64,000 bases of DNA from Rhodococcus sp. (in: high G+C Gram-positive bacteria) (GCA_023264675.1 JAHFVG010000019.1:6097-70096); one strand, 5' to 3'; numbered from the stretch's first letter, positions 1 through 48,224 are shown. The notes: a model not told the origin generated them from the letters alone. Program-made: numbers and translations.

Positions 1-342
1 GGTGATCGCCGTGTGACCGTATTTGCGCACGTGCAGGCATTTCGCCGACAGACCACGGTCGCACCGTTCACACCGGCCGCAGGACGTACCGATCGTCCAC
101 ACCACCCGATCCCCAACGGCTACCGACGCACTCGGGCCTGCGGCGACGACACGCCCGACACTCTCGTGGCCGAGGACGGTAGGCACCGGCGTCGAACGGC
201 GTCCGGATACGGTGTGCAGATCGCTGCCGCACACCGTCGAGAGTTCGACGTCCACCAGCACTTCGCCGTGTTGCAGATCTGGTAGCGGAACTTCCCGAAC
301 GAAGAATTCGGTACCCGACCAGATCGCGGCTTCAGCCCTCAT
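1..342 (-). CDS. Zn-dependent alcohol dehydrogenase, phosphonate-catabolism-associated (TIGR03366/HpnZ-like); 5' part only, runs off the window
   Basis: Manual translation from ATG at 342 gives MRAEAAIWSGTEFFVREVPLPDLQHGEVLVDVELSTVCGSDLHT...LGHESVG...CGRCERCDRGLSAKC. It has the catalytic Zn CGSD/GHE motifs and the 4-Cys structural Zn motif. ATGA overlap with the phnE stop. Not in the ORF track because there is no stop in the window. Confidence 0.9.
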   Translation of the reverse strand, partial: MRAEAAIWSGTEFFVREVPLPDLQHGEVLVDVELSTVCGSDLHTVSGRRSTPVPTVLGHESVGRVVAAGPSASVAVGDRVVWTIGTSCGRCERCDRGLSAKCLHVRKYGHTAIT

Positions 343-1160
343 GCGCCCAGTCGCTTGCGGACTGCGCCGCTGAGCAGATCGACCGCCACGACGAGGACCA
401 GAACCATGAGAATGTAGGTCATCATTTCGTCGAACCGGAACAGTGAGATCGACTGATTGATCAGGAATCCGATGCCGCCCGCACCGACGAGACCGAGGAC
501 GAGCGAGGATCGCACGTTCACGTCGAGGCGGTAGAGCAGCAGACCGACGAATTGTGGAACGACCGTCGGCAGGACCACATGCGCGGCGACCTGAGTGCTG
601 GAGGCACCGGCGACTCGTAGCGCGTCGATCGGGCCCTGATCGATTTCTTCCATGGATTCGGACCACAGTTTCGCCATCACTCCGGTGTTGTGCAGGATGA
701 TCGCGAGAACACCAGCGAACGGTCCGAGCCCGACGGCGGTGACGAAAATGAGCGCGAAGACGATATCGGGTACCGCGCGTAGGAACGACATGATGCCGCG
801 AGAAGCCTGATATACGAACGCGTTTCGGTTGGTGGTTCGTGCGCCGAGGACGGCTAACAGAATCGAGAACGGTATCGAGAACGTCGTGCCGACGAGTCCG
901 ATCGCCAAGGTGACCAGACAGGCCTCGATGCCGGGTAGAACGACTGTCGTCCACGAGAAGTCGGGCGGGAAAGCAGATTCCAGGAACTTGACGATTCCCT
1001 CCCACCCGTTGACGAGGGCGGTGACGGACACGTCGGTCTCTTCGACCGCCCAGACGTGCACGGCGACGAGTCCCAGTATCAGCGCTGCGCCGCCGAGCAG
1101 GGTCATGCGTCGGCGCGGTCGTGGTGGTACCGCAAGGCGTCGAATCGTGAGAGTGGTCAT
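339..1160 (-). CDS. phnE: Phosphonate ABC transporter permease PhnE
   Basis: Multiple TM helices, EAA-like loop (SESMEEIDQGPIDALRVAGAS), RLDVNVRSSLVLGLVGAGGIG. Start moved to ATG 1160 (MTTLTIRR), which overlaps the phnC stop. Confidence 0.92.
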   Translation of the reverse strand: MTTLTIRRLAVPPRPRRRMTLLGGAALILGLVAVHVWAVEETDVSVTALVNGWEGIVKFLESAFPPDFSWTTVVLPGIEACLVTLAIGLVGTTFSIPFSILLAVLGARTTNRNAFVYQASRGIMSFLRAVPDIVFALIFVTAVGLGPFAGVLAIILHNTGVMAKLWSESMEEIDQGPIDALRVAGASSTQVAAHVVLPTVVPQFVGLLLYRLDVNVRSSLVLGLVGAGGIGFLINQSISLFRFDEMMTYILMVLVLVVAVDLLSGAVRKRLGA

Positions 1161-1957
1161 CGGCTTTCCTTCTCGGAAGGTTCGTACAGTGCGGCCACGG
1201 TGTCGTCGTCGAGGTCGTAGGCAGCGCAGGAGAACGAGATTCGTCCCGCATCGAGGCCGACGATCCGGTGGCAGTGGCGTCGAGCGAGATCGGGTTGGTG
1301 CAGTACTGCGGCGACCGCGATTCCGTCGGCTGCCAGTGATTGCAGCAGGCGCATCACTTGCTCGGCCGAGGCCGGGTCCAACGCGGACACAGGTTCGTCG
1401 GCGAGCAGAACCGGCGCACGCTGGCACAGTGCACGGGCGATGGCGACGCGCTGCTGCTGACCGCCGGACAGTCGGTCGGCGCGGTCGTGGGCGCGATCGG
1501 CGAGTCCGACACGGTCGAGGCAACCCATGGCTTCCTCACGCAGTTCGCGCCCGAACGCGAGTGTTGACCAGGATCGCCGGAGGGACAATCTGCCCAGGGC
1601 TCCCGCGCAGACGTTGTCGAGAACCGATCGACGACCGACCAGATGGATCTGCTGGAACACCATCGCGGCGTTGTGCGCCGTGGACCGGCCGAGGGTCGAT
1701 TCTCCCGCAACCTCGATGGTTCCGCCGTCCACGGATGTCAGACCCACGACGCAGCGAAGCATCGTCGACTTGCCGGATCCGTTGGCGCCGAGAATGCCGA
1801 CGAGTTCTCCCGCGTGTACGTCGAGATCGACCCCGTGCAGGACAGTTCGGTCACCGAAGGAGGTGCGCAACTGACGGATCGACAGGGCCGGCAGATCACC
1901 GTGCACTTCGGACCGAGGTACTACTTCGGTCGGTTCGGAAACGACCTCGGTGGTCAT
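1157..1957 (-). CDS. phnC: Phosphonate ABC transporter ATP-binding protein PhnC
   Basis: Walker A GANGSGKS, signature LSGGQQQRVAIARAL, Walker B LLADEP, VLHQ. Start at ATG 1957 overlaps the phnD stop. Confidence 0.92.
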   Translation of the reverse strand: MTTEVVSEPTEVVPRSEVHGDLPALSIRQLRTSFGDRTVLHGVDLDVHAGELVGILGANGSGKSTMLRCVVGLTSVDGGTIEVAGESTLGRSTAHNAAMVFQQIHLVGRRSVLDNVCAGALGRLSLRRSWSTLAFGRELREEAMGCLDRVGLADRAHDRADRLSGGQQQRVAIARALCQRAPVLLADEPVSALDPASAEQVMRLLQSLAADGIAVAAVLHQPDLARRHCHRIVGLDAGRISFSCAAYDLDDDTVAALYEPSEKESR

Positions 1958-2862
1958 CCCGCGTCCTTCGAGGTGAGGCCGAGTGTGTCGGCCAGGTCGA
2001 ACAAGGGTTGGTAGGTGCTCTTGTCGACCGGGAGGAGTTGTCCGGCAGGATCGACGTCGAGCAGAGCGCCTGCCTCGGCGACAGCCTCGGGGGAAAGATT
2101 CACGAGTGCGTCGGCTACGGCTTTCTGGAACTCTTCGCTGGTGCCGCCGGCCACGGTGATGGGGTCGTTGGGGATGGGATTCGAAGTCCACACCTGACGG
2201 AACTGCGACTGATCGAACTGCCCCTCGCCGGTGGAGGTCGCCACTTGCTGCGAGTTGATCTCGGCAGCATCGACTTTGCCGTTGGTCAGGGCCAGGAGTG
2301 CTTCGGGATGGCCGCCGGCGTAGGTGATCTTCACGTCGGAGTCCTGCATGTTGCTGTCACGCAGAGCCATTCGTGGCAACGCATCTCCGGAGGTCGAACC
2401 GGGCTCCGAGAGTGCGAGGGTGCGGCCGCGGAGGTCCTCGATCGACTCGATGTCGGAGTCCTTGGGTACCCAGACTCCCGCGGTGTAGCTGGACAACGTT
2501 CCCTCGGCGGTCCCGAACGACGCGAGGGCGCGCGCATCAGCCTCCTGGCTGGCGAAGACATAACCGAGGGGCCCGAAAACGCCCAGCTCGAGCTGGCCGT
2601 TGCGCATGGCCAGAACCTCGGCTGCATAGTTGTCGACGACGGTCACCTCGACCGGGCAGTTCAGCTTCTCGGACAGTGCATCGCCGACAACCTGGAACGC
2701 GGGCGTGAGTTTGGCGGGGTCCTCGAAAGGCTCGACGCCGAACCTGATCTGGCCACCGGGGCAGGTGGGAGATTCGGCGGCTGTGTCGGAATTGCTACCG
2801 CACGAGGTCAAGGCGAGGGTGAGGGCGGCGAGCGCTACGGCCGCGTGACGGGACTTGATCAT
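1954..2862 (-). CDS. phnD: Phosphonate ABC transporter substrate-binding lipoprotein PhnD
   Basis: Lipobox LTSC, PhnD-like STSG motif, GGHPEALLAL, position in the phnCE operon. Confidence 0.9.
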   Translation of the reverse strand: MIKSRHAAVALAALTLALTSCGSNSDTAAESPTCPGGQIRFGVEPFEDPAKLTPAFQVVGDALSEKLNCPVEVTVVDNYAAEVLAMRNGQLELGVFGPLGYVFASQEADARALASFGTAEGTLSSYTAGVWVPKDSDIESIEDLRGRTLALSEPGSTSGDALPRMALRDSNMQDSDVKITYAGGHPEALLALTNGKVDAAEINSQQVATSTGEGQFDQSQFRQVWTSNPIPNDPITVAGGTSEEFQKAVADALVNLSPEAVAEAGALLDVDPAGQLLPVDKSTYQPLFDLADTLGLTSKDAG

Positions 2863-2886
2863 GGAGGTCTCCTGGTGGGGTGAGGG

Positions 2887-4002
2887 TCAGAACGAGTCGA
2901 GAACGGAGGTGGAAAGGCCGAAGGCGGTTGTCATGCCGATGCCGGAGGTGACCGACACCACCCTGACGCGTGTTGATGGTGCGGCAGTGAGGAAGTCGGT
3001 GTGCGGACTGGTGGCATATACCCCGCGCCACCGACGCAGGACGGTCAATGGAGTACCGAACAACCGTGCACCTTCGCGCAGGAGGAGTTCGGCATTGGAT
3101 TCGTCGTCGAAGGGAGTATGGGTGCGTGCGTTGTGGTGAGTGTCGCCGAGGACCACCGCACCGTCGGGGCGTTGTGTGAGCATGAGATTCATTGCAACGT
3201 CGATCAATTCGGGAGTGTCGGCTTCGATTCGACTACGCACAGCCTGCGCCGAGGGCATGGCGGCGAGTCCGTCGTAGCGAAGCATCGACAGTCCGGTCAG
3301 GATCGCCGAGTCCAGGACGATTCCTCCGGGTGGTGCGACTTCGAGCATCTGCAGGCGGCATCGCTCGACGCTCCACTCCGCCGCGATATTCGGAAACAGT
3401 CGGTCGACATCGTGACCGACAGCGTGGACGACGTGAGCTCCGCGCACCGCTCCTCGTGACGTGCGGACGACGGGGTCCTCGTCTCCGAGAATCTCGATCA
3501 CCGATGTATCCCAGAAGAATTGGACTCCCTCAGCGGCAAGCCATGCGGCGAGAGCAGGTGCCGCTTCGCGAGGATCGACCCGAAGATCCATCGGTAGGTG
3601 CGCGGCGCCCAGTACGTCGGCGCCGCCGATGGGGCTCGATGCTCGCATCCGAACCTGCTCGGATCCGCGCTCGGCGGCGAATTCCTCGAGCACGGCCACT
3701 TCGTCGGCAGCACGGGCGACGACGAGCGTGCCGCACTCTCGTACGTCGAACCCTGCCTTTCTGCCGAGAGCCAGCCAACGCTCACGGGCGGCCAAAGCAT
3801 AGGTCAGTGCTCGGCCTGACTGCGCCGTCGTGCAGATGTGTCCGAAGTTCCGGATCGAGGCGCCGACGGCGCGATCGTTTCGTTCGATGACGGCGACGGA
3901 CATGCCGCGCTGCACCGCCTCGGCGGCATGCGCGAGTCCGACGATGCCTGCGCCGACGACGACGAGGTCGAACGAGTGCTTGGGGGAGTGGTCGGTCTTC
4001 AC
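2887..4002 (-). CDS. FAD-dependent oxidoreductase, DAO family (TIGR03364/HpnW-like, putative aminophosphonate oxidase)
   Basis: GAGIVGLAHA dinucleotide-binding motif, GASIRNFG, VTSGIGMT. Syntenic with phnCDE and a PhnX-like HAD. Start is uncertain (GTG 4002 or the ORF-track start 4038). Confidence 0.85.
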   Translation of the reverse strand: MKTDHSPKHSFDLVVVGAGIVGLAHAAEAVQRGMSVAVIERNDRAVGASIRNFGHICTTAQSGRALTYALAARERWLALGRKAGFDVRECGTLVVARAADEVAVLEEFAAERGSEQVRMRASSPIGGADVLGAAHLPMDLRVDPREAAPALAAWLAAEGVQFFWDTSVIEILGDEDPVVRTSRGAVRGAHVVHAVGHDVDRLFPNIAAEWSVERCRLQMLEVAPPGGIVLDSAILTGLSMLRYDGLAAMPSAQAVRSRIEADTPELIDVAMNLMLTQRPDGAVVLGDTHHNARTHTPFDDESNAELLLREGARLFGTPLTVLRRWRGVYATSPHTDFLTAAPSTRVRVVSVTSGIGMTTAFGLSTSVLDSF

Positions 4003-4050
4003 GAGGACAACAGTCCACTTCCCGGGACGGAGGGTCAATGGAAAACTGAC

Positions 4051-4066
4051 ACTTGTTCGAACAAGT
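4051..4066. promoter_or_regulatory. Perfect 16-bp palindrome ACTTGTTCGAACAAGT, candidate operator of the adjacent GntR/HutC-family regulator
   Basis: Perfect palindrome in the divergent intergenic region; resembles HutC-subfamily TTGT-N4-ACAA operators. Confidence 0.65.
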
Positions 4067-4086
4067 TCACCGACCGTTCATGCAGC
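4065..4086 (+). promoter_or_regulatory. PHO-box-like 11-nt direct repeats GTTCACCGACC/GTTCATGCAGC
   Basis: Two GTTCA units exactly 11 nt apart, matching the actinobacterial PhoP GTTCA direct-repeat pattern, upstream of a phosphonate uptake operon. Confidence 0.55.
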
Positions 4087-4169
4087 ACGAGCTGGATTGT
4101 TTGCTTCGGTTACGACATGATTGGTCTTGTTCGGTTGGAGTTGTTCAGTCAGGTTGGAGGCTATCCGCG

Positions 4170-4913
4170 GTGTCACTTCCGCTGCATTCCCGCGTTGCCG
4201 ATAGTTTGCGTGCGCAGATCGCCGACGGCACCCTGGCAGTCGGTGCTCCGCTGCCCTCGGAAGCGACTCTGTGTGCGACGCATCATGCGTCGCGCGGCAC
4301 GGTTCGGGCCGCGTTGGCTGCGTTGCGTAACGAGGGATTGATTGCGGGCGGACGTGGTCGCCCGCCCGTCGTGTGCGACACCGCGGTCGGGCAGCCGTTC
4401 GAGACCTTCATGTCGTTCACCGCTTGGGCGGATTCCATCGGTCGAACGCCAGGGCAGCGCACGTTGGAGGTTGCTCGACGCTCGGCCACGTCGGTGGCTG
4501 CGGCGGCGCTCGATCTCGAGCCGGGCACCGCCGTCGTGGATGTGTTGAGGTTGCGTACGCTCGACGGCGCACCGGCGATGCTGGAGAGATCGAGTTTCGT
4601 CGAATCGGTCGGCCGGAAGCTGTTCGATTTCGATCCCGACTCGGGCTCGATCTACGCCTACCTGACCGGTGAGGGCGTCGATCTGCACGAAGGCAGGCAC
4701 ACCATCGATGCGGTTGCGGCCACCGACATCGACGCGGCACACCTCGACATAGATCCCGGGGCGCCGCTTCTGCGCGAAAGACGCAGAGCTGTAGACCTTT
4801 CCGGTACACCACTCGAATACGCGGACGATCGGTACCGGCCCGATCGAATCGCTTTCACCATCGACAACACACGAACCGCGCACGATTTGCGCATCGTCAA
4901 GGAGATCTCGTGA
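4170..4913 (+). CDS. GntR/HutC-family transcriptional regulator with UTRA domain (PhnF-like)
   Basis: wHTH (LPSEATLCATHHASRGTVRAAL) and UTRA (YRPDRIAF). GTG 4170 is preceded by GGAGG at 4156-4160. Confidence 0.88.
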   Translation: MSLPLHSRVADSLRAQIADGTLAVGAPLPSEATLCATHHASRGTVRAALAALRNEGLIAGGRGRPPVVCDTAVGQPFETFMSFTAWADSIGRTPGQRTLEVARRSATSVAAAALDLEPGTAVVDVLRLRTLDGAPAMLERSSFVESVGRKLFDFDPDSGSIYAYLTGEGVDLHEGRHTIDAVAATDIDAAHLDIDPGAPLLRERRRAVDLSGTPLEYADDRYRPDRIAFTIDNTRTAHDLRIVKEIS

Positions 4914-5605
4914 CACCGACACGCTCGTTCGACCTTGCCAGCCTCGACATGGCGGGCACCACCGTGGATGAGGGGGGCCTCGTGTACGAGGTGCTCTCGA
5001 GCACCGTCGTCGAGGCTGCCGGAACCCCGCTGCCCCCCGAACTCCTCGCTACGTGGAAGGGCACCAGCAAGCTCGAGGCAATAGCCGGCCTGCTCGATGG
5101 CTTGGGTGTTCCGGCCGACTCGATCTCGGTGGATGCCGTGTTCGAAACGTTCCGGGCGAACCTCATCGACGCATATCGGCAGACGCCGCCGAAACCGGTT
5201 GCCGGGGTTCCCGAAGCGCTGCGTTCATTGCGGGATCGGGGTGTGAAAGTCGCGTTGCAGACCGGCTATTCGGCAGATATTGCCGACGCGATTCTGGCGG
5301 GAATGGGCTGGACCGTCGGTACCGGTAAAGGCAACACTGTCGACGCATTGATCACGTCGGATCTGGTTCCGGCAAGCAGGCCTGCGCCCTATCTGATCTT
5401 TCGCAGCATGGAGGCCACCGGAGTGACGGATGTCCGACGAGTCCTCGTTGCGGGTGATACGCCGAACGACGTTCTTGCCGGTTGGAACGCGGGTGCTGGT
5501 TTCGTCGTTGGTGTTCTCAGCGGATCGTTCGACGAGGATGCACTGCAGCAAACACCCGCTACTCACGTTCTGGGAAGCCTGGCGACCGTCGGCACCCTGC
5601 TGTAG
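4910..5605 (+). CDS. Phosphonatase-like HAD hydrolase (TIGR03351/PhnX-like)
   Basis: Motif I DMAGT, cap WKGTSK, SRPAPYLI, AGDTPND. GTGA overlap with the regulator. Confidence 0.87.
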   Translation: MTPTRSFDLASLDMAGTTVDEGGLVYEVLSSTVVEAAGTPLPPELLATWKGTSKLEAIAGLLDGLGVPADSISVDAVFETFRANLIDAYRQTPPKPVAGVPEALRSLRDRGVKVALQTGYSADIADAILAGMGWTVGTGKGNTVDALITSDLVPASRPAPYLIFRSMEATGVTDVRRVLVAGDTPNDVLAGWNAGAGFVVGVLSGSFDEDALQQTPATHVLGSLATVGTLL

Positions 5606-5860
5606 CGGTCTGAAACGTCAACCATGAACGTCTGAGAAATGGTCGCCGCGCCCCAGATGCGCGTCACTGCTTCCGACAACCGCGCTCAGCGATCCTGGCG
5701 TAGTGTGATGTTCGCTGCACAGCGCCCAGTGGCGGAAACTTCGTCGACCTGGCCCGACATGGTGAAACGCTGAGACCTTGAACGATCGCGACTGAATGCG
5801 AGTCAAGAAACTTCCGAATGCTTACTTGTCAATCGTTCTGCAAGCGATCATTGTTGCGCG

Positions 5861-6079
5861 ATGACCTCTGCACACTCGCCCGTCGTCGACGAGGAGCGTC
5901 GCGCACTGAACGATGTTCGCGACCGGCTTCGTCTCCAGTTTTCGACCGTTGCTCCCGATGAAGTGGACACGGCTGTAGCTCACGCACACCGAAAGTTCGA
6001 CGGGGGCAAGATCCGCGATTTCGTACCGCTGTTCGTTGAAAGAGCAGCGCGCGAACACCTTGCAGGCGTGCCTCGCTGA
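5861..6079 (+). CDS. Small three-helix-bundle dimerization domain protein (DUF3562-like)
   Basis: 72 aa; the C-terminal KIRDFVPLFVERAARE pattern is typical of this actinobacterial family. Confidence 0.7.
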   Translation: MTSAHSPVVDEERRALNDVRDRLRLQFSTVAPDEVDTAVAHAHRKFDGGKIRDFVPLFVERAAREHLAGVPR

Positions 6080-6489
6080 CGCCGTCGTCGGACGGCCCGT
6101 AGGCGCTTGCCCGAATCGTCAGGGACTTGGTCGTGACCAAGCAACACGAGCAGTCCGGTCACGCGACATATCGTTCATCTGAATTGATCGGCAGCCTCTG
6201 GATGCATGTCGTTTTCAATGCACGCAAGGTAACAACGTCTGTCGTCGACAGGCCTCCAGAAGCATGCGCGATGCCGGTGATTCGTTCGAGTGCGTCAGCG
6301 GTGTGGTGAGACTGTTGACCGGCGCCACGGCATTGCCATGCTTCAACCGCAATGGGAACGACAGGCGGTAAGTCGGCAGTGGTAATGCGCCTACCGGCCT
6401 TGCGCACGCTCTTGCGAGGATCGGCCGCGCGGATGCCGCAATTTACCCTTGTCCTGGCCAGTATCCATTACCCAGCCACAGACCGGTAT

Positions 6490-6504
6490 ATCGGTTATTT
6501 CGAT
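6490..6504. promoter_or_regulatory. LysR-type recognition site ATC-N9-GAT (T-N11-A)
   Basis: ATCGGTTATTTCGAT is an interrupted palindrome just upstream of a TTGACG hexamer (6515-6520), ahead of the dctA-lysR-phnA operon. Confidence 0.5.
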
Positions 6505-6639
6505 GGGCAGGATTTTGACGTGGGTCAGTTTGGTTGCGGAGTTCACCTTCTCGTCATGACGCGTTAGCAGACACGCTCGGTCTTCTTCGGACGATGTTGT
6601 TGCACGGCGATACTGGATCGCTCTCGTGAAGGACGACTC

Positions 6640-8067
6640 ATGACCCACATCTCCACCGCACCACGCGACCGCATCGTCCCGTCGCGACGAACTCCATGGT
6701 TTCGTCACCTGTATGTCTGGGTGTTGATCGCGATGGTTCTCGGCTCATCGGTCGGTCTGCTGTGGCCGGGCGTCGGAACAGCTCTGAAACCGCTCGGCGA
6801 CGCATTTGTCAGTCTCCTGACCATGACTCTGGCGCCCCTTGTGCTGTGCATGGTTGTCGCCGGGATCGGTGCAGTGGCCAATCTCGGCTCGGTCGGCAAG
6901 GTAGCTTTGCGTTCGATCATCTATTTCGAGGCCGTGACGACGATCGCGCTTGCGCTCGGCCTACTGGCCGTCAATGTCGTACGGCCCGGCGACGGTCTGC
7001 ACGTGGACGCGGACTCACTCGAAATGACCGAAAATGTGGCCGCCGGGGTGGCCGCCGGCCAGGATCTGGAATGGTACGACTACTTTCTGCAGATCATCCC
7101 ATCGAACATCGTGGGTAGCTTGGCCGACGGCGCCATCTTGCCGATCCTGTTCTTCGCCATCCTGCTGGGAATCAGCCTGCAGATGATGGGGGAACGTGGC
7201 CGCGTTGTAGCTCGCGGCGTCGAACGTCTGGGAGAGGCTCTGTTTCAGGTAGTCCGAATCGTCGTCTGGGCCGCTCCGATAGGAGTCTTCGGTGCTATGT
7301 CCTACACCGTCGGGAACTTCGGGTCGGCGTCGCTGGGAGCGCTCGTCCAACTGATCGCAACGTTCTACGCCACGTCGCTGATGTTCATCGTGTTCGTTCT
7401 GGGAGGCGTTCTGCTGGTCATCGGATTGAGGCCGTGGCGCGTGCTCCTCTACCTGAAAGATGAAGTGCTGCTCGCACTGGGCGCCTCGTCGTCCGAAGTC
7501 GCACTGCCCGGCATCGTACGGAAGCTGGAGAGTGTCGGAGTCTCCAAGGAGACAGCAGGTATCAGTGTCACAGCGGGATACTCGTTCAATCTGGACGGAA
7601 CCTGCATTTACCTCACTCTGACAACGGGGTTCATAGCCCAGGCGCTCGGGATCGATATGTCCCTCGGTCAGCAGATTGTCTTGCTGCTGGTCATGCTGCT
7701 CGCATCCAAGGGCACCGCGGGCGTTACCGGGGGTGGCTTCGTCATGCTGACCACCAGCGTCTCCTCTCTCGGCCTGATCCCTGTATCGGGCGTTATGCTC
7801 GTGTTCGGTATCGATCGCTTCATGTCGGAATGTCGCGCGGTCGTCAATTCGCTGGGCAACGCTGTTGCCGGGCTCGTGGTGGCCCGCTGGCAAGGTGAGA
7901 TCGATCCCGGTCAGGTGCATTCCATCATGGCCGGACATTCGCCCGCATTCGACTCCGGCAGAGCCGAACTGGAGTCCGTCGAACAGCGCGACGAACAGTT
8001 CTTTCCCGACCCGGCCGAACGACCTACACCCGCGTCGGCGAGACACACGTCGGCAGCAACGCTGTGA
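6640..8067 (+). CDS. dctA: Dicarboxylate/amino acid:cation symporter (DctA family)
   Basis: ASSSEVALP, GYSFNLDGT, SKGTAGVTGGGF and DRFMSECRA motifs of the DAACS family. Confidence 0.88.
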   Translation: MTHISTAPRDRIVPSRRTPWFRHLYVWVLIAMVLGSSVGLLWPGVGTALKPLGDAFVSLLTMTLAPLVLCMVVAGIGAVANLGSVGKVALRSIIYFEAVTTIALALGLLAVNVVRPGDGLHVDADSLEMTENVAAGVAAGQDLEWYDYFLQIIPSNIVGSLADGAILPILFFAILLGISLQMMGERGRVVARGVERLGEALFQVVRIVVWAAPIGVFGAMSYTVGNFGSASLGALVQLIATFYATSLMFIVFVLGGVLLVIGLRPWRVLLYLKDEVLLALGASSSEVALPGIVRKLESVGVSKETAGISVTAGYSFNLDGTCIYLTLTTGFIAQALGIDMSLGQQIVLLLVMLLASKGTAGVTGGGFVMLTTSVSSLGLIPVSGVMLVFGIDRFMSECRAVVNSLGNAVAGLVVARWQGEIDPGQVHSIMAGHSPAFDSGRAELESVEQRDEQFFPDPAERPTPASARHTSAATL

Positions 8068-8972
8068 CGCTGCCCAGTCTTCATCGATTACGGGTCTTCG
8101 TCGCAATCGTCGATGCCGGGAGTGTGTCGTCCGGAGCCCGCCATCTCGGCATCGGTCAGTCCACTGCGTCGACTCACCTTCGCCAACTGGAGGTCGAGGT
8201 CGGAACTTCGTTGATCGACAGAACCCGTGGGCATTTCGGCCCTACCGAGGCAGGCATGATCTTGGTCGGGCACGCTCGCCGCCTGATGAATATTGCCGAC
8301 GAAGCTGTCGACGACTTGGCGCGAATCAGTCTGCGCCCGCTTACCGGATCGCTTGCCGTAGGTGCCACGACGACGACAACGGAGGGTTGCTTCCTGCCGA
8401 TCGCGTTGCAACGCTTCGCTTCCCAGTACCCCGACGTGGCTTTGAATCTGCAGGTGGACAACTCGTCGACGTTGCTGCGTCGAGTGCGCGACGGGGACGT
8501 CGGTGTCGCGGTCATCGCCACGGAAATCGACGATCCCGCCCTCACGACGATAGCTTTGTCACCCGAAGACCAGACCGTCATAGTGTCCAGCGAGCATCCG
8601 CTGGCAGGCTCGTCTGTCGACCCACACCTTCTCCGTAGTTCCGTGGTGCTGTTGCGCGAAGAGGGCTCGGCTACGAGGCAATATCAGGAATCATTGCTGT
8701 CGCAGTGGAGGATTCCCGGTGCGCATACGTGGACCCTGACCAGCACCAGCGCCATCGTCGCTGCGACCGCAGCAGGTTTGGGAATCTCCTGTCTGCCAGT
8801 GGTGGTCTGCCGAGATGCGCTGGCCCTGGGCAAGATTGCCGAAATACACCTCGAGCCGGCACCGCCGCCGCGGCCGGTGTCTCTCGTTCGGCGCAGCGAC
8901 CATCACCTCACCCGAGCAGAAGAGCATTTCGTGGTGCTGGTCCAGGACGCCCTCGACTCTCTCACCCGATAA
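8064..8972 (+). CDS. LysR-family transcriptional regulator
   Basis: N-terminal HTH (GSVSSGARHLGIGQSTASTHLRQLE) and LysR substrate domain (LLREEGSATR). GTGA overlap with the dctA stop. Confidence 0.92.
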   Translation: MTLPSLHRLRVFVAIVDAGSVSSGARHLGIGQSTASTHLRQLEVEVGTSLIDRTRGHFGPTEAGMILVGHARRLMNIADEAVDDLARISLRPLTGSLAVGATTTTTEGCFLPIALQRFASQYPDVALNLQVDNSSTLLRRVRDGDVGVAVIATEIDDPALTTIALSPEDQTVIVSSEHPLAGSSVDPHLLRSSVVLLREEGSATRQYQESLLSQWRIPGAHTWTLTSTSAIVAATAAGLGISCLPVVVCRDALALGKIAEIHLEPAPPPRPVSLVRRSDHHLTRAEEHFVVLVQDALDSLTR

Positions 8973-9017
8973 GCACTACGGTCCCACATCTTCTCGACAC
9001 GATCACGAAAGCAGGAA

Positions 9018-10382
9018 TTGAAATTGCACAAGCGCCAGTTCGATGTCAACGGCCGGACCTACACCGTCCCTGAGTCGCCAGTGGTAGTGATCTGCATCGA
9101 CGGTAGTGAACCCGACTACCACATCGAGGCAATCGAAGCTGGGCGTATGCCATGGCTCAGCCGGCTGCTGGATGGTGAATCGAGTTCATGGCCGGCGCAT
9201 TGTGCTATGCCTGCTCTCACCAATCCCAACAATATGTCGATTGCCACCGGGTGCACGTCCGACGTGCACGGCATCAGCGGCAACTACATCTTCGACACCG
9301 TCACCGGCGAAGAGGTTCTCATGAACGATTCGCGTTTTCTACGGGCTCCCACCATTTTCGGCGCAGCCAACGAAGCGGGCCTCGACGTCGTCGTGGTCAC
9401 CGCGAAGGACAAGCTGCGTCGTCTACTCGGTGCAGGTCTCGTCGAAGACGGCCCTGCACTCCAGGGCGGCAGTACATTCGTCCCGCCCTCGCGCACCGGC
9501 ATCTGCTTCTCGGCCGAGCGGGCCGACGAGGCGACACTACCGAACAACGGCATCGACAAGGTGTTGGAGTTGGTGGGTAAGCCGCTTCCGCAGGTGTACT
9601 CGGCAGACCTGTCCGAGTTCGTACTCGCTGCCGGAGTGGCGATTCTGGAGTCCGAGAACGTCGATCTGATGTACCTGTCGCTGACCGACTACATACAGCA
9701 CAAACATGCCCCCGGTACCGATACGGCGAACGCGTTCTACGAGATGATCGACTCGTACGCTGCCCGACTCGACGCTCTGGGTGCCGTCGTTGTGCTGACC
9801 GCTGATCACGGAATGAGCGCCAAGACCGATGACGGGGGGACAGTGCGGGTGATCTATGTCGAGGACGAAGTCCGCCGTATCCTCGGAGCCTCGGCAGCCG
9901 GTTCGAACAACGAAGGCGCCGATGGAATCAGAGTAATTCTTCCCATCACGGACCCTTACACGGTGCATCACGGAGCACTCGGATCGTTCGCGAGTGTTTA
10001 CCTTCCCGCCGGTGCCGATCGGACCGCGGTGATGACACAGCTGCGTGCACTCGACGGTGTGCAGGCCGTCCACAGTCGCGAGCACGCCGCCGAAACCTAT
10101 GGATTGCCCGCGGATCGAATCGGCGATGTCGTTCTGATGGCGGACGCAGACACGGCAGTGGGTAGGTTCGCGGAGTGGCACGACCTGAGCGGCCTCGACG
10201 TACCGCTTCGCTCGCACGGCGCACTCGGCGAACTACAGATTCCATTCATTCTCAATCGCGCTCTGCCCCGGCCGGAGTTACTCGACGAGCCGTACGGTCA
10301 ACCCGCCTACGTCCACAACTACGATGCGTTCTGGATAGCCACCACACTGGTCAGCCGCCATCAGAACACGTCTGTGGCGTAA
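9018..10382 (+). CDS. phnA: Phosphonoacetate hydrolase PhnA (alkaline phosphatase superfamily)
   Basis: VNGRTY..P..PVVVICIDGSEPDY, nucleophile region TNPNNMSIATG, YLSLTDYIQHK, ADHGM, RSHG. TTG start. Confidence 0.92.
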   Translation: MKLHKRQFDVNGRTYTVPESPVVVICIDGSEPDYHIEAIEAGRMPWLSRLLDGESSSWPAHCAMPALTNPNNMSIATGCTSDVHGISGNYIFDTVTGEEVLMNDSRFLRAPTIFGAANEAGLDVVVVTAKDKLRRLLGAGLVEDGPALQGGSTFVPPSRTGICFSAERADEATLPNNGIDKVLELVGKPLPQVYSADLSEFVLAAGVAILESENVDLMYLSLTDYIQHKHAPGTDTANAFYEMIDSYAARLDALGAVVVLTADHGMSAKTDDGGTVRVIYVEDEVRRILGASAAGSNNEGADGIRVILPITDPYTVHHGALGSFASVYLPAGADRTAVMTQLRALDGVQAVHSREHAAETYGLPADRIGDVVLMADADTAVGRFAEWHDLSGLDVPLRSHGALGELQIPFILNRALPRPELLDEPYGQPAYVHNYDAFWIATTLVSRHQNTSVA

Positions 10383-10393
10383 GCCGACGAGAA

Positions 10394-10424
10394 GTGGCGG
10401 ACGGGGCAGAACCTCGTCCGCCAC
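10394..10424. terminator. GC-rich hairpin between convergent phnA and the ABM gene
   Basis: GTGGCGGACG / CGTCCGCCAC perfect 10-bp stem just after the phnA stop; no U-tract, which is common in actinobacteria. Confidence 0.55.
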
Positions 10425-10463
10425 GCAACGAGACCAAGCGCAGCCGGGCCGATCTTCGTCCCG

Positions 10464-10781
10464 TCAGCTCGACGAGACGATGTGGACGTCGACCCGCATC
10501 GACGCATCGATCCCCGGGTCATCGGCGAGCAAATCGAGTACACGCTGGTGAGGTTCGTCGAACACCGGATTCGCGTAGTGCCTCGTGAACGATTCGTCGT
10601 CCCGGTAGAACTCGAAAGCCCACATGACGTCGGGGTTGCCGTTGTCGCGGCTCAGTACCCAGTCCACCGGACCGTCGGGATCGCCGGTGTGGTGCAAGTC
10701 GGTGCACAGATCGAACAGCTCTTTGCCCTTTCCTGGCTTGGCTTGAAATCGCAGGACTACACCGGGTTGATTGTTGTGCAT
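10464..10781 (-). CDS. ABM-domain (antibiotic biosynthesis monooxygenase / putative quinol monooxygenase) protein
   Basis: VVLRFQAKPGKG...FEFYRDDESF.RH pattern; start at ATG 10781 after GAAGG. Confidence 0.8.
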   Translation of the reverse strand: MHNNQPGVVLRFQAKPGKGKELFDLCTDLHHTGDPDGPVDWVLSRDNGNPDVMWAFEFYRDDESFTRHYANPVFDEPHQRVLDLLADDPGIDASMRVDVHIVSSS

Positions 10782-10813
10782 CGTTGTCGCCTTCATTGTT
10801 GTCGCAATTAATT

Positions 10814-10850
10814 GTTGGAACCATGTTCCATGGTGGAACATGGTTCCAAC
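10814..10850. promoter_or_regulatory. Tandem TetR operators TGGAAC-N3-GTTCCA forming a perfect 17-bp inverted repeat
   Basis: GTTGGAACCATGTTCCA-TGG-TGGAACATGGTTCCAAC lies between the divergent ABM and tetR genes. Confidence 0.75.
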
Positions 10851-10867
10851 TGTGTCAAGATTGTGTT

Positions 10868-11521
10868 GTGCGAACAGATGACGAGCGTTCCCCTCGGCGA
10901 CAGGATGCGCTCTCGGCGCACGTCATCGTCGCCGAGGCGGTTGCTGTACTCGATGACAGTGGGATTGGTGGCCTCACGTTTCGCGCTCTCTCCAAGCGCT
11001 TACGGACCGGGCCGGGGGCGATTTACCATCACGTTGCCAACAAGGAAGAACTACTCGCGGCGGCAGCCTTGAAGTTGGCCAACGATCTCGCCAGTGCTCA
11101 TCCCGACAACGTTCGGGAATTCATGCTCGCCATTCACGATCTGATCGAGGGCCATCGTTGGCTCGGCGCGCAGTTGTCAAGCGCGCCATGGCAGGACGCG
11201 GTGATGATGCTGTTCGAAAGCATCGGCGATCGTCTTGCTCGGCAGGGGCTGGAAGCGGTCAGGCTGTTCGATGTCGCGTCAGCGCTGGTGAACTACCTGC
11301 TCGGATCTGCCGGGCAGTATGCGGCAGGCGCACGAGTTCCGGGCGACATCGGGCGGGATGAGTTTCTCGTGGAAGTCACCACAAGCTGGACTTCCCGAAC
11401 CGACCCAGAACAATTTCCGTTCATACACTCAATAGCGGAGCAACTCGCCCATCATGACGACCGGCGGCAATTCGCAGCAGGCGTTGACCTCATCCTCTCC
11501 GGCGCATCCGCACCGAACTGA
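10868..11521 (+). CDS. TetR/AcrR-family regulator (TetR_C-like)
   Basis: HTH GLTFRALSKRLRTGPGAIYHHVANKEELL; start estimated at GTG 10868. Confidence 0.88.
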   Translation: MRTDDERSPRRQDALSAHVIVAEAVAVLDDSGIGGLTFRALSKRLRTGPGAIYHHVANKEELLAAAALKLANDLASAHPDNVREFMLAIHDLIEGHRWLGAQLSSAPWQDAVMMLFESIGDRLARQGLEAVRLFDVASALVNYLLGSAGQYAAGARVPGDIGRDEFLVEVTTSWTSRTDPEQFPFIHSIAEQLAHHDDRRQFAAGVDLILSGASAPN

Positions 11522-11668
11522 GTCAGAACTTCTCGGATTATCGGACCGAGGGACTGGATTCATCCCTTTCACTACGAGTCAGCGCGTGCCGTTGGGGGAG
11601 TCCGCCGGATGCGTCGCGAGCGATGAGCGTCGAAACGAGCTTGCACGGCAGGAGCATCGTCCCTAAAC

Positions 11669-11703
11669 TGACAGCGCGTCAATTATTATCGACAATACGT
11701 CAA
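11669..11703. promoter_or_regulatory. Candidate TetR operators TGAC-N5-GTCA and a degenerate second copy
   Basis: TGACAGCGCGTCA (11669-11681) and CGACAATACGTCA (11690-11702) lie upstream of the SDR-tetR pair. Confidence 0.45.
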
Positions 11704-11742
11704 ACAATGAGGCTGTCGACCTACCTGCGTTCGGAGAAGACG

Positions 11743-12594
11743 ATGAAGAGAATCATGATTACCGGTGTGGGCAGCGGTTTGGGTCGTGCCTTTGCAGCCA
11801 AAGCGCTGGAGGTCGGTCACGAGGTGGTGGGCACGGTGCGCACATCCGAGGACGCCGCTGCCTTCGAGTCGCTCGCGCCAGGACGTGCTCACGCCCGCTT
11901 GCTGGACGTGACCGATGACGCTGCCGTGGCGGCCACTGTCCGCGAGGTCGAGACTGCCGTGGGGCCCGTCGACGTAGTGATCGCGAATGCCGGCTACGGG
12001 CTGGAGGGCATCTTCGAGGAGACGTCGTTGGCGGACGTGCGAGCTCAGTTCGCAACGAACGTGTTCGGCGTGGCCGCTACGCTGCAGGCTGTCCTGCCCT
12101 ACATGCGCGAGCGTCGGGCAGGACACTTGCTCGCGGTAACGTCGATGGGCGGGCTGATGGCGGTCCCCGGAATGTCGGCATACTGTGCGAGCAAGTTCGC
12201 CGTGGAAGGCATGCTGGAGAGCATCGGCAAGGAGGTGGCGTCCTTCGGCATTCACGTGACGGCGATCGAGCCGGGTTCGTTCCGCACCGACTGGGCAGGC
12301 AGATCGATGACGCGCGCAGATCGCACCATTTCCGATTACGACGAGTTGTTCGATCCCATCCGAACTGCTCGTCAAAAGGCCAGCGGTAATCAGCTCGGCA
12401 ACCCGGTGAAGGGCGCCGAAGCGGTGTTGTCAATCCTCGACGAGGCCGAGCCGCCCGCGCATCTGGTGCTGGGGTCCGATGCTCTCAGGTTGGTCGGCGC
12501 GGCGAGGACTGCGGTCGACGAGGATATCCGTCAGTGGGAAACGCTCTCGCGGAGTACTGATTTCGCCGATGGCGCGCAGTTGGCCGCGAAGTAG
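11743..12594 (+). CDS. Short-chain dehydrogenase/reductase
   Basis: TGVGSGLG, NAG, YCASK. Start at ATG 11743 after GGAGA. Confidence 0.92.
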   Translation: MKRIMITGVGSGLGRAFAAKALEVGHEVVGTVRTSEDAAAFESLAPGRAHARLLDVTDDAAVAATVREVETAVGPVDVVIANAGYGLEGIFEETSLADVRAQFATNVFGVAATLQAVLPYMRERRAGHLLAVTSMGGLMAVPGMSAYCASKFAVEGMLESIGKEVASFGIHVTAIEPGSFRTDWAGRSMTRADRTISDYDELFDPIRTARQKASGNQLGNPVKGAEAVLSILDEAEPPAHLVLGSDALRLVGAARTAVDEDIRQWETLSRSTDFADGAQLAAK

Positions 12595-45651: not shown

Positions 45652-47025
45652 ATGAAGATCGGCGCCAAATCCACCACCGGGTGGAAGGCAACCATTTCGG
45701 TTGCCATGAGCAATTACATCGAAGCAGGATCGATCATTGCGATCGCAACCTCGCTCACGTTGTGGCAGAACGAGTTCGGCATCAGCAACCTCGCCGTCGG
45801 TCTGCTGGCAGCCTTCAGTGCCAACGCCTTCGGTGCTGCGATCGGCGCAGGTATCGGTGGGCCCCTGTGTGATCGTTACGGACGTAAAGCGATCTACACC
45901 TACGACCTCATGGTGTACATGGTCGGAGTATTGATCGCGGCGTTCGCCGTCAACTTCACCATGCTGTTGGCCGCATTCGTCATCACCGGTGTCGCGGTCG
46001 GCGCCGGCGTGCCTGCCTCGTGGACCTACATCGCCGAACAGGCACCCTCACGTGAACGCGCCCGGCACGTCGGCACCGCCCAACTTGCCTGGTCGGTAGG
46101 ACCGTTCGTGGGATTCGCGCTGGCGGCTGCCCTCTCGCCGCTCGACCTACTCGGATCGCGCATCATCTTCCTGCATCTCTTCGTCGTGGCTGCTGTCGTC
46201 TGGTGGATCCGTCAGGGACTGCCGGAATCGGTCATCTGGAAAGACGAAGCCAAGAACACCGCCGCTGCCGCCGCTCGCGCCGTCACCTTCGGAGCCCAGG
46301 GACTGAAGGGGCTGTTCACCAAGCGCGTCAACATCACAGCGCTGCTCGTGCTCATCGGTATCTACGGGTTCTGGAACACAGTCGCAGGCCAGGCAGGGAT
46401 CTTCATGCCCCGCGTCTACGAGAGCGCGGGCGTCGAGAGCGCCGTCCAGCAGAACCTCCTGCAGGTGCTGGTGTGGGGATGCACCGTTGCGGCGACGTAC
46501 TTCGGGTTCATGCGCTACGCCGACCGTGTGTCGCAGCGAGCCCTCTACTGCGTCGGAGCCGTCCTCGGCATCGCGGCCTGGGCGATCCTCGTGTTCTTCA
46601 CCGACGCGGGCATGCCGACGCTGCTGATCTTCGCGGTGACGTGGGGAGCCGCGGCCGGTATCGGAGCTCAGGCCTTCTACAGCCTGTGGGCCAGCGAGCT
46701 GTTCGCCACCCCGTACCGCGCCAGTGCGCAAGGCTTCATGTTCTTCGTCGTGCGCACCGCGACCGGTCTGCTCAGCTACTTCTTCCCGACGCTGCTTGCG
46801 GCCACCGGCCTCACCACGGTCGGCCTGCTCCTCATCGGCCTTCTCACCGTCGCCCTCGCGATCGGAGCCGTATTCGCCCCGAATACGCGCGGAAAGTCGT
46901 TGCAGGAGATCGAAACCGAACGATACGGCGACGTCGTGTCCGCCGACCTGACCGACTCCGTCGGTGAAACCGACTTCCCAGACCACGCCGGCGACGCCGG
47001 CCGTACCCCGGAGCGTGCACTGTGA
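45652..47025 (+). CDS. MFS sugar transporter (probable L-rhamnose importer)
   Basis: About 12 TM helices, DRYGRK, YIAE, ELF, PNTRGKSL; inside the rha operon. Confidence 0.87.
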   Translation: MKIGAKSTTGWKATISVAMSNYIEAGSIIAIATSLTLWQNEFGISNLAVGLLAAFSANAFGAAIGAGIGGPLCDRYGRKAIYTYDLMVYMVGVLIAAFAVNFTMLLAAFVITGVAVGAGVPASWTYIAEQAPSRERARHVGTAQLAWSVGPFVGFALAAALSPLDLLGSRIIFLHLFVVAAVVWWIRQGLPESVIWKDEAKNTAAAAARAVTFGAQGLKGLFTKRVNITALLVLIGIYGFWNTVAGQAGIFMPRVYESAGVESAVQQNLLQVLVWGCTVAATYFGFMRYADRVSQRALYCVGAVLGIAAWAILVFFTDAGMPTLLIFAVTWGAAAGIGAQAFYSLWASELFATPYRASAQGFMFFVVRTATGLLSYFFPTLLAATGLTTVGLLLIGLLTVALAIGAVFAPNTRGKSLQEIETERYGDVVSADLTDSVGETDFPDHAGDAGRTPERAL

Positions 47026-48185
47026 TTGCCCCCGACCCGACTGCTGTCCTCGACGCCCTCGCCATCGAGCTTCCCTCATGGGCTTTCGGTAACTCGGGAA
47101 CTCGTTTCAAGGTCTTCGGGACTCCGGGCACACCGCGAACGATCGAGGAGAAGATCGCGGACGCGGCCACCGTTCATCGACTCACCGGGCTTGCTCCATC
47201 GGTCGCACTGCACATCCCGTGGGACCTCGTGGACGATTTCGGTGCCTTGACCCGCTATGCGCAGGATCAGGGCGTGAGGCTGGGAACGGTCAATTCGAAC
47301 ACGTTCCAGGACGACGACTACAAGTTCGGAAGTCTCACCCACACTGACAAGACGGTGCGGCAGAAGGCGATCGATCACCACATTCGCTGCCTCGACATCA
47401 TGTCGGAGATCGGCTCGCAGGATCTGAAGGTGTGGTTGGCGGACGGAACGAACTATCCGGGTCAAGGCGATATCCGCGGGCGGCAGGACCGACTCGCAGA
47501 GTCGCTGGCAGCGATCTATCAGCATGTCGGCGAACATCAGCGGTTGGTGCTCGAGTACAAGTTCTTCGAGCCCGCGTTCTATGTCACCGACGTCCCCGAC
47601 TGGGGTACCTCGTATGCGCACACCGTCGCATTGGGGGAGCGGGCAGCAGTGTGCCTCGACACCGGTCATCACGCGCCCGGTACGAACATCGAATTCATCG
47701 TTGCTCAACTGCTCAGACTCGGAAAGCTCGGTTCGTTCGACTTCAACTCGCGCTTCTACGCCGACGACGATCTGATCGTCGGTGCGGCGGATCCGTTCCA
47801 GCTCTTCAGGATTCTGTTCGAGGTGATCCGCGGCGGCGGACTCGCGCCGGGTTCGGATCTCGCACTCATGCTCGACCAGTGCCACAACGTCGAGGCGAAG
47901 ATTCCCGGGCAGATCCGATCGGTGCTCAACGTGCAGGAAATGACGTTGCGGGCGGCACTCGTCGACACCGGTGCGTTGACCACTGCCCAGGAAGCAGGAG
48001 ATGTGCTCGGCGCCAACGAGATCTTCATGGACGCCTTCTACACCGACGTCCGGCCGCGGCTCGAGACCTGGCGTCAGGAGCGCGGCCTACCGGCCGCACC
48101 CATGCGGGCGTATGCCGAATCCGGCTACCAGGAGCGCATCGACACCGAGCGCGTAGGCGGCACTCAGACATCCTGGGGCGCCTGA
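47022..48185 (+). CDS. rhaI: L-rhamnose isomerase (RhaI, xylose-isomerase-like)
   Basis: IELPSWAFGNSGTRF, HIPWD, EYKFFEP, DTGHH, FNSRFYADDD, DQCHN. Confidence 0.93.
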   Translation: MIAPDPTAVLDALAIELPSWAFGNSGTRFKVFGTPGTPRTIEEKIADAATVHRLTGLAPSVALHIPWDLVDDFGALTRYAQDQGVRLGTVNSNTFQDDDYKFGSLTHTDKTVRQKAIDHHIRCLDIMSEIGSQDLKVWLADGTNYPGQGDIRGRQDRLAESLAAIYQHVGEHQRLVLEYKFFEPAFYVTDVPDWGTSYAHTVALGERAAVCLDTGHHAPGTNIEFIVAQLLRLGKLGSFDFNSRFYADDDLIVGAADPFQLFRILFEVIRGGGLAPGSDLALMLDQCHNVEAKIPGQIRSVLNVQEMTLRAALVDTGALTTAQEAGDVLGANEIFMDAFYTDVRPRLETWRQERGLPAAPMRAYAESGYQERIDTERVGGTQTSWGA

Positions 48186-48224
48186 GACATGACAACCGAC
48201 CCAGCTCCCACAAGGAAGACGATC

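Follow-up and report, generated by a model that had tools for sequence, protein, structure and literature searches.

A seven-gene locus at positions 1-5605 of a 64,000-nucleotide stretch from Rhodococcus sp. (GCA_023264675.1, JAHFVG010000019.1:6097-70096; hereafter, the window) is likely to be a cassette that scavenges inorganic phosphate (Pi) from two-carbon phosphonates, in which two entry enzymes would converge on a single step of carbon-phosphorus (C-P) bond cleavage. The locus belongs to a cassette type that has already been described, and characterized members exist for two of the three enzyme families that it encodes. An earlier note on the same DNA had presented the pathway as biochemically unresolved, with a substrate that was only guessed; that view is outdated, since the oxidase family was characterized in 2023 (PMC10590968) and the dehydrogenase family in 2026 (PMC13576164).

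Gene content and layout of the cassette

The locus comprises the following features.

1-342, minus strand: 5' part of pbfG, zinc-dependent medium-chain dehydrogenase of TIGR03366 ("HpnZ"), 114 of 343 codons, last gene of the predicted operon
339-1160, minus strand: phnE, ABC transporter permease, 273 aa, 4-nt overlap with both neighbors
1157-1957, minus strand: phnC, ABC transporter ATPase, 266 aa
1954-2862, minus strand: phnD, lipoprotein substrate-binding protein, 302 aa, lipobox LALTSC
2887-4002, minus strand: pbfD, flavin adenine dinucleotide (FAD)-dependent amine oxidase of TIGR03364 ("HpnW"), 371 aa, GTG start, first gene of the predicted operon
4003-4169, no strand: divergent promoter/operator region, 167 bp between pbfD and gntR
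4170-4913, plus strand: GntR/HutC-subfamily regulator with a winged helix-turn-helix and a UTRA effector domain (PF00392 and PF07702), 247 aa
4910-5605, plus strand: PhnX-like HAD hydrolase of TIGR03351 ("HpnX"), 231 aa

Gene calls on the source contig have the same boundaries as the open reading frames (ORFs) of the window. On the minus strand, 4-nt overlaps link phnD, phnC, phnE and the dehydrogenase gene in series, and a 24-nt gap separates the oxidase stop from phnD; because of these overlaps and this gap, the five genes from the oxidase to the dehydrogenase look like one operon. The regulator and HAD genes also overlap by 4 nt and lie on the plus strand, divergent from the oxidase operon. 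The dehydrogenase gene is cut by the window edge, and the next gene on the source contig is convergent, so the operon would end at the dehydrogenase. G+C content is even across the locus, at about 62-66%, and each protein has its nearest relatives in Rhodococcus, Rhodococcoides and Williamsia. The grouping is not accidental, as Rhodococcus sp. G-MC3 and Rhodococcoides trifolii carry all seven genes in identical order, at 66-89% protein identity and between unrelated flanking genes.

The gene content and divergent arrangement given in the earlier note were borne out by these gene calls and by profile matches, with TIGR03364, TIGR03351 and TIGR03366 all matched above cutoff (TIGR03366 with the full-length dehydrogenase). 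Its description of the locus as complete holds on the source contig and fails in the window, where the dehydrogenase is truncated at 114 of 343 codons. The note had also reported that no pyridoxal-phosphate transaminase PhnW is present, and a tblastn search with Acinetobacter PhnW indeed gave no match anywhere in the 64 kb. Likewise, tblastn searches of the 64 kb found no C-P lyase genes (E. coli C-P lyase protein queries) and no PhnY-type aldehyde dehydrogenase (actinobacterial aldehyde dehydrogenase query), and inspection of the genes and large ORFs around the cassette revealed no pepM/ppd biosynthetic genes.

The FAD oxidase belongs to the PbfD family

The oxidase scored 399.4 bits against TIGR03364 (cutoff 285.1), and the next family, ThiO, gave 78 bits. 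Its PF01266 match spans residues 24-375 of a 383-aa ORF (the gene call itself being 371 aa), and a GxGxxG-type dinucleotide-binding motif, GAGIVG, lies within VVVGAGIVGLAHA. The oxidase gene is divergent from that of the TIGR03351 HAD, that is, it is clustered with a putative phosphonoacetaldehyde (PAA)-consuming enzyme.

TIGR03364 corresponds to the PbfD family, as every PbfD in the published table is annotated with this model (Zangelmi et al., iScience 2023, PMC10590968). PbfD1 and PbfD2 (A. baumannii, Mariniblastus fucicola) convert 2-aminoethylphosphonate (AEP) and N-methyl-AEP into PAA with O2 as acceptor and formation of H2O2, and Pi was released in the assays only upon addition of PhnX (PMC10590968). 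Outside the PbfD1 subgroup, pbfD is mostly found with phnX alone, replacing PhnW (PMC10590968). Judged by its family, the window oxidase is probably an AEP/N-methyl-AEP oxidase yielding PAA. The core logic proposed earlier, in which FAD-dependent oxidative deamination gives a phosphono-aldehyde that passes to a PhnX-like HAD, matches the published TIGR03364 results at the family level (PMC10590968). On a Tsukamurella plasmid, the HAD-GntR/PbfD core occurs together with an ABC transporter annotated as 2-aminoethylphosphonate-specific and with no dehydrogenase gene, and because of this pairing AEP fits as the substrate of the PbfD branch.

The dehydrogenase is a probable PbfG-type enzyme and second entry point

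Inside the window, the 114-aa fragment of the dehydrogenase has its best match to TIGR03366 (128.4 bits). For TIGR03366 scoring and residue checks we used the full-length protein from the protein database (P0124), which gave 357.3 bits (cutoff 328.1), the next families staying at 118 bits or lower. Assignment as a threonine or generic alcohol dehydrogenase was rejected, since those models reached at most 118 bits versus 357 for TIGR03366.

PbfG is a pf00107 zinc dehydrogenase whose closest characterized relatives are threonine dehydrogenases, and its gene lies in phnX or phnY-phnA clusters of Actinomycetota, Mycobacteriales among them (Piazza et al., Protein Sci 2026, PMC13576164). The Cellulosimicrobium protaetiae enzyme oxidizes 2-hydroxyethylphosphonate (HEP) to PAA with nicotinamide adenine dinucleotide (NAD+), at a kcat of 9.9 s-1 and a kcat/KM of 88,500 M-1 s-1, and none of ethanol, 1-propanol, glycolate, threonine and AEP is turned over to an appreciable extent (PMC13576164). 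Its modelled active site assigns Cys45/His66/Cys166 to zinc and Ser47/Arg56/His124/Asn298 to the substrate (PMC13576164).

As a proxy for C. protaetiae PbfG, we used the dehydrogenase of Cellulosimicrobium sp. PMB13 (L051 in our set of compared loci), validated by the seven published residue numbers: C45, S47, R56, H66, H124, C166 and N298 stand exactly at the published PbfG positions. This protein scores 413 bits against TIGR03366 and adjoins a TIGR03364 oxidase (391.5 bits) and a TIGR03351 HAD (261.8 bits). Because L051 carries all three families, the organism group of the characterized PbfG shares the "HpnW/X/Z" trio with the window.

The window dehydrogenase is 52% identical to the L051 protein over 338 aa and keeps all seven residues (C38, S40, R49, H59, H110, C152 and N284), which are invariant, gaps aside, in 82 aligned homologues. 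C38, H59 and C152 are the catalytic zinc ligands, and alignment to the L051 protein predicts S40, R49, H110 and N284 as HEP-binding residues. The structural zinc site, C88/C91/C94/C102, is also invariant in the 82 homologues, gaps aside. Among the zinc ligands, only C38, H59 and the structural cysteines fall inside the window.

From the L051 residues, the scores and the identity, we infer that TIGR03366 is PbfG (PMC13576164 itself carries no TIGRFAM citation). The window dehydrogenase is thus probably an NAD-dependent HEP dehydrogenase, which most likely opens a second entry route from HEP to PAA and probably does not dispose of the aldehyde product. Disposal of the aldehyde was the role that the earlier note had given it; this is contradicted for the characterized orthologue, PbfG, which converts HEP to PAA and is inactive on ethanol (PMC13576164), and the window protein keeps all of its published zinc and substrate residues.

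The HAD hydrolase retains the catalytic set of PhnX

Against TIGR03351 the HAD scored 247.6 bits (cutoff 218.9), a cutoff also passed by its orthologues in L001, L002, L051 and L073, and it matches B. cereus PhnX structures with E = 1.5e-16. The orthologues of Rhodococcus sp. G-MC3 and Rhodococcoides trifolii share 75-84% identity with it. We mapped its residues in a 43-sequence alignment that included Acinetobacter PhnX and residues 42-210 of B. cereus PhnX. The nucleophile D13 lies in the DxAGT motif (D13-M-A-G-T), K54 stands in the column of the PhnX Schiff-base Lys53, where lysine is invariant, and T118, R157 (Arg160 of PhnX), D183 (Asp186) and D187 (Asp190) are present; at these catalytic positions, 41-43 of the 43 sequences agree. 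A pairwise phmmer alignment to B. cereus PhnX, which placed Lys53 opposite a leucine, was set aside in view of this invariant column. Because the catalytic residue set is conserved, PAA hydrolysis is the likeliest activity, and the window HAD is a probable phosphonoacetaldehyde hydrolase cleaving the C-P bond. A literature search returned no assay of any TIGR03351 protein and no mention of TIGR03351.

The transporter and the divergent promoter

PhnE scored 267 bits against the TIGR01097 equivalog (cutoff 216.7). The best family of PhnC is TIGR02315, at 227.7 bits and below the equivalog cutoff of 266.1, and the protein is 43.6% identical to E. coli PhnC. PhnD matched TIGR01098, a broad model of phosphate/phosphite/phosphonate substrate-binding proteins, with 189.9 bits (cutoff 112), and PF12974 also matches. 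An alignment with E. coli PhnD (3p7i) shows that the S-T-S motif for phosphonate binding and Asp205 (within IPNDPI) are retained and that Gln replaces Glu177. In the E. coli structure, two acidic residues contact the 2-AEP amine, and we take Asp205 to be one of them.

The regulator scored 100.3 bits against the PhnF equivalog TIGR02325, below the cutoff of 156.8, and its best solved relatives are NagR/YvoA and DasR. By these matches we class it as a HutC-subfamily GntR protein rather than a demonstrated PhnF, and it is probably a repressor of both divergent transcripts. The region between pbfD and gntR contains four elements.

4051-4066: O1, perfect 16-bp palindrome ACTTGTTCGAACAAGT, predicted operator
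4154-4139: O2, weaker site ACCTGACTGAACAACT, predicted operator beside the regulator start codon
4038-4033: conserved TTGAC(C), on the pbfD strand
4065-4086: PHO-box-like 11-nt direct repeats GTTCACCGACC/GTTCATGCAGC, read on the plus strand and overlapping O1

O1 has a single match in the 64 kb, even when two mismatches are allowed. We compared 21 sequences anchored on O1, namely the window and 20 related loci, of which L002 and L033 are the same R. trifolii region. The motif ACTTGT-N4-ACAAGT, or a form with one or two changes, occurs at the same position in 20 of the 21 sequences (19 of the 20 related loci), the exception being Nonomuraea (L005). Also conserved around O1 are TGAAC-N6-TGAAC upstream and TTGAC 11-12 nt downstream, towards the oxidase gene. 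The repeats at 4065-4086, with a GTTCACC/GTTCATG core, resemble what we take to be the 11-nt direct-repeat PHO box of actinobacterial PhoP, with the core GTTCACC. The palindromic sites are candidate operators for the HutC-type GntR, and the PHO-box-like repeats overlapping O1 suggest extra control by phosphate limitation. M. smegmatis PhnF likewise has two operators in a bidirectional promoter, according to the summary in PMC7866108. An Rfam scan of positions 1-12000 gave no match, and a scan of 3900-6700 for sigma-70 promoters and intrinsic terminators found nothing.

Proposed pathway

Taken together, these assignments would give the following route. The PhnDCE importer, with its lipoprotein PhnD, would bring the phosphonate into the cell. 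By analogy with two members of its family, PbfD would use FAD and O2 to turn AEP and N-methyl-AEP into PAA, releasing NH3 or methylamine together with H2O2. PbfG would oxidize HEP to PAA with zinc and NAD+, as suggested by its 52% identity to the Cellulosimicrobium orthologue and by active-site conservation. The HAD, with Lys54 forming a Schiff base and Asp13 as nucleophile, would then convert PAA into acetaldehyde and Pi, as its conserved catalytic residues suggest. The HutC-type GntR would repress both divergent transcripts at ACTTGT-N4-ACAAGT until an effector binds, and phosphate limitation may add a further layer of control through the PHO-box-like repeats.

Distribution of the cassette

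A scan of species-representative genomes with a dehydrogenase alignment yielded 80 loci, which were classed by tblastn with the window proteins.

Window-like cassette: 14 of 80 loci (Rhodococcus, Williamsia, Galactobacter, Nocardioides, Actinoplanes)
Window-like, ending at a contig end: 2 of 80 loci
Window-like with phnA between phnE and the dehydrogenase gene: 2 of 80 loci (Marmoricola endophyticus and a Nocardioidaceae metagenome-assembled genome)
Three enzymes shared, order different: 8 of 80 loci (Cellulosimicrobium, Isoptericola, Promicromonospora, Krasilnikoviella, Streptosporangium)
HAD-phnDCE-dehydrogenase without the oxidase: 6 of 80 loci (Nocardia)
LysR-PhnA-MFS-dehydrogenase-aldehyde dehydrogenase without oxidase or HAD: 27 of 80 loci
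Dehydrogenase with distant oxidase and PhnX-type genes: 4 of 80 loci (non-actinobacterial)
Dehydrogenase without a recognizable partner in the fetched stretch: 17 of 80 loci

In the 27 loci that pair the dehydrogenase with PhnA and an aldehyde dehydrogenase, it would be useful only if it acts on HEP. The six Nocardia loci (L049, L062, L065-L067 and L079) have the arrangement GntR-HAD-phnDCE-dehydrogenase and no oxidase. The Nocardia-type HAD passes TIGR03351 (253.8 bits) despite sharing only about 33% identity with that of the window. Such loci look like a form of the cassette dedicated to HEP alone.

The two loci with a phnA homologue inside the cassette carry it at about 8673-10000 (L030, the Nocardioidaceae genome) and about 8820-10000 (L034, Marmoricola endophyticus); both have one operon of oxidase, transporter, PhnA and PbfG opposite GntR-HAD. 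In Isoptericola hypogeus, a PhnA-type cluster and a PbfD/HAD-type cluster each contain a PbfG, and these two paralogues share about 43% identity (L006, L061). The pattern suggests that the PbfG family has two subclades tied to two PAA-consuming routes.

Comparison with known systems

Among the closest described systems is the pbfG-pbfD-phnX(-like) cluster of Cellulosimicrobium (PMC13576164), examined here through L051, which shares TIGR03366, TIGR03364, TIGR03351, a PhnDCE-type transporter and a GntR-like gene with the window. Gene order differs, being phnDCE-pbfG-(gntR)-pbfD-HAD in Cellulosimicrobium and, in the window, HAD-gntR divergent from pbfD-phnDCE-pbfG. Identity to the window proteins is 28-47% for the transporter proteins, 46-48% for the oxidase and HAD, and 52% for the dehydrogenase.

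The PbfD2-type pathway of M. fucicola and many Proteobacteria likewise has a TIGR03364 oxidase in place of PhnW, feeding a PAA hydrolase, with no phnW nearby (PMC10590968). Actinobacterial PbfD is absent from the published Table S1 of that study (PMC10590968). Compared with PbfD2-type clusters, the window cassette adds pbfG and the PhnDCE importer and is without the phnZ or pbfA often found there.

The canonical PhnW-PhnX pathway (B. cereus, Salmonella, Pseudomonas, and the Acinetobacter plasmid L004) has the same final chemistry, with a DxAGT nucleophile and a Schiff-base lysine in the cap. In contrast, the window lacks the transaminase, and its HAD belongs to TIGR03351 and not to TIGR01422, without His56 and an insertion of about 22 aa.

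In the M. smegmatis phnF/phnDCE locus (Gebhard and Cook, via PMC7866108), as in the window, a repressor gene of the GntR (HutC) type is divergent from phnDCE, and the shared promoter region holds two operator sites (predicted ones in the window). That locus has no catabolic enzymes and serves Pi transport, whereas the window transporter sits between two phosphonate-oxidizing enzymes and its regulator is below the PhnF cutoff.

LysR-PhnA-MFS-PbfG-aldehyde dehydrogenase clusters of the phnY-phnA type occur in Kribbella, Agromyces, Mycobacterium, Streptomyces and others. Their PbfG is 54-60% identical to that of the window where the PhnA is window-like, and down to 41% in the most distant counted; in most of these clusters, PhnA is 72-76% identical to the window PhnA (9018-10382). 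In the window, PbfG is instead coupled to the PhnX-like route, and PhnA stands apart with a LysR regulator and a DctA-type carrier.

A neighboring PhnA module and the rest of the window

Downstream of the HAD gene lie three further genes.

6640-8067, plus strand: DctA-family cation:dicarboxylate symporter, 475 aa, PF00375; NF002461 at 488.7 bits, just below the cutoff of 513
8064-8972, plus strand: LysR-family regulator, 302 aa, upstream of phnA
9018-10382, plus strand: phnA, phosphonoacetate hydrolase, 454 aa, TIGR02335 equivalog

PhnA scored 466.5 bits against TIGR02335 (cutoff 407.55), covering profile positions 2-403 of 408, and is 72-76% identical to PhnAs that adjoin pbfG in many actinobacterial loci. 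The LysR protein reached 127 bits against TIGR03339, the LysR family associated with AEP catabolism, which is below cutoff; it is 33% identical to the LysR preceding phnA in Mycobacterium sp. 21AC1. The DctA-LysR-PhnA module is not beside the cassette in the closest relatives. Because no PhnY is present in the window, the module probably handles imported phosphonoacetate, as an independent second C-P hydrolase module; that the DctA-type carrier is the phosphonoacetate importer is a guess, and it may be so. Since this module adjoins the cassette and PhnA recurrently associates with the PbfG family, the phosphonate island of the window is larger than the seven genes to which the earlier note had confined it.

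Between the HAD and DctA genes, about 1 kb (5606-6639) has no convincing gene, although one assembly calls a 72-aa ORF there; the scans above gave no Rfam match and no promoter-like or terminator-like site in this interval. Farther along, at 45652-51715 on the plus strand, genes for an MFS transporter of the sugar type, a class II aldolase fused to a short-chain dehydrogenase, and an FGGY kinase may form a catabolic set for a sugar (rhamnose-type); they are unrelated to the cassette. The remaining window resembles an ordinary Nocardiaceae chromosome.

Alternative readings

Several points weigh against the reading of the locus as a two-carbon phosphonate cassette with two entry enzymes. The assayed members all come from outside this locus and its Nocardiaceae subclade, being the PbfDs of A. 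baumannii and M. fucicola (PMC10590968) and the PbfG of C. protaetiae (PMC13576164). Identity of the window PbfD to a PbfD1-type protein of Acinetobacter is only about 23-25%, and to PbfD-type proteins of planctomycetes and proteobacteria about 25-38%; at such low identity, its substrate preference is drawn at the level of the family. The HAD reaches only 86.9 bits against canonical PhnX (TIGR01422), below the cutoff of 220; the position of PhnX His56 is Ala57 in the window protein, with His found only in five canonical-type sequences, and the missing insertion is a C-terminal one. The PhnX used in both assay papers was the canonical Vibrio splendidus enzyme (PMC10590968, PMC13576164). PhnD falls below the PhnD equivalog TIGR03431 (171.9 versus 261.1 bits), and its best solved relatives are phosphite binders of the PtxB type, at about 28% identity. 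M. smegmatis PhnDCE carries Pi and not phosphonate or phosphite, according to PMC7866108. Finally, the PbfG equilibrium favors HEP, and its authors note a possible tug-of-war if the enzyme is co-expressed with an AEP-to-PAA enzyme (PMC13576164); for this reason, the oxidative direction in the window operon is proposed rather than given.

A more far-reaching reading has several parts. The TIGR03351 clade, without the PhnX His56 and C-terminal insertion, may differ from PhnX in substrate range or mechanism, and one PhnD may serve both amino- and hydroxyethylphosphonates; if so, the cassette would be a dual-substrate funnel in which PbfG also buffers the toxic aldehyde, HutC and Pho control would be combined through overlapping operator and PHO-box sites, and the cassette would be coupled to the phosphonoacetate module with its DctA-family carrier. 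We regard it as rather doubtful that all of this holds together; if it did, import of a phosphonate by such a DctA-type protein would be of a new kind.

A second alternative concerns the direction of PbfG, which might here be mainly reductive, turning PAA into HEP and buffering the reactive PAA from PbfD instead of serving HEP entry. The kinetics lend it some weight, with a kcat/KM of 290,000 M-1 s-1 for PAA reduction versus 88,500 M-1 s-1 for HEP oxidation, as does the competition of PbfG with PhnX demonstrated in vitro (PMC13576164); pbfG is also predicted, from the operon layout, to be co-transcribed with pbfD. However, PhnX-type hydrolysis is irreversible and pulls flux forward (PMC13576164), and pbfG also occurs in clusters without an AEP-oxidizing enzyme (Nocardia type and PhnA type), where only the oxidative direction would be useful. 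The lack of pepM/ppd among the genes and large ORFs inspected near the cassette also argues against it, and we consider a mainly reductive role unlikely.

Another alternative is the model of the earlier note, which followed the TIGRFAM proposal: the oxidase would use another aminophosphonate such as 1-hydroxy-2-AEP, the HAD would cleave hydroxy-phosphonoacetaldehyde, and the dehydrogenase would reduce the freed acetaldehyde or glycolaldehyde. The TIGR03364 description, quoted in PMC10590968, proposed hydroxy-AEP (HAEP) as substrate; the HAD clade is TIGR03351, distinct from canonical PhnX (TIGR01422), the His56-to-Ala change makes a slightly different 2-oxo-alkylphosphonate substrate conceivable, and the dehydrogenase gene is the last of the operon. 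Yet the TIGR03364 enzymes that have been assayed make PAA from AEP and N-methyl-AEP (PMC10590968), and the characterized TIGR03366 enzyme is specific for HEP/PAA and leaves ethanol, 1-propanol and glycolate unoxidized (PMC13576164). For phosphonate binding, the window dehydrogenase has the same Arg, His, Asn and Ser as PbfG, and the 27 loci in which its family accompanies PhnA without oxidase or HAD make sense only if it acts on a phosphonate. We therefore find this model improbable.

It is similarly improbable that PhnDCE is a high-affinity importer of phosphate (or phosphite), with the enzymes relying on other uptake and the cassette being a Pho-type co-regulated unit, since its genes lie between pbfD and pbfG, with 4-nt overlaps and translational coupling, in an arrangement kept in at least 14 loci, the equivalent Tsukamurella slot holds the AEP-annotated transporter, PhnD keeps the Asp of IPNDPI where the PtxB-type phosphite binders have QYPW, and the regulator is no closer to 3f8m, which we take to be the structure of M. 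smegmatis PhnF, than to NagR or DasR. What speaks for such an importer is the PhnD score under the equivalog cutoff, the PtxB-type relatives, and the case of M. smegmatis, where phnF/phnDCE is laid out divergently in the same way, has two operators for PhnF and transports Pi but neither phosphonate nor phosphite (PMC7866108).

Implications

The reading of the locus as a cassette in which PbfD and PbfG both feed PAA to a PhnX-like hydrolase is thus the one that we prefer. The "HpnW/X/Z" trio of TIGRFAMs now maps to PbfD, a PhnX-like enzyme and PbfG, and the locus is best annotated as an AEP/N-methyl-AEP and HEP utilization cassette rather than as an unknown pathway. As a compact system with culturable relatives, it is well suited to work on the activity of TIGR03351, the ligands of actinobacterial PhnD, and the conserved operator with its possible PHO box, and it bears on how soil actinobacteria mineralize phosphonate phosphorus.

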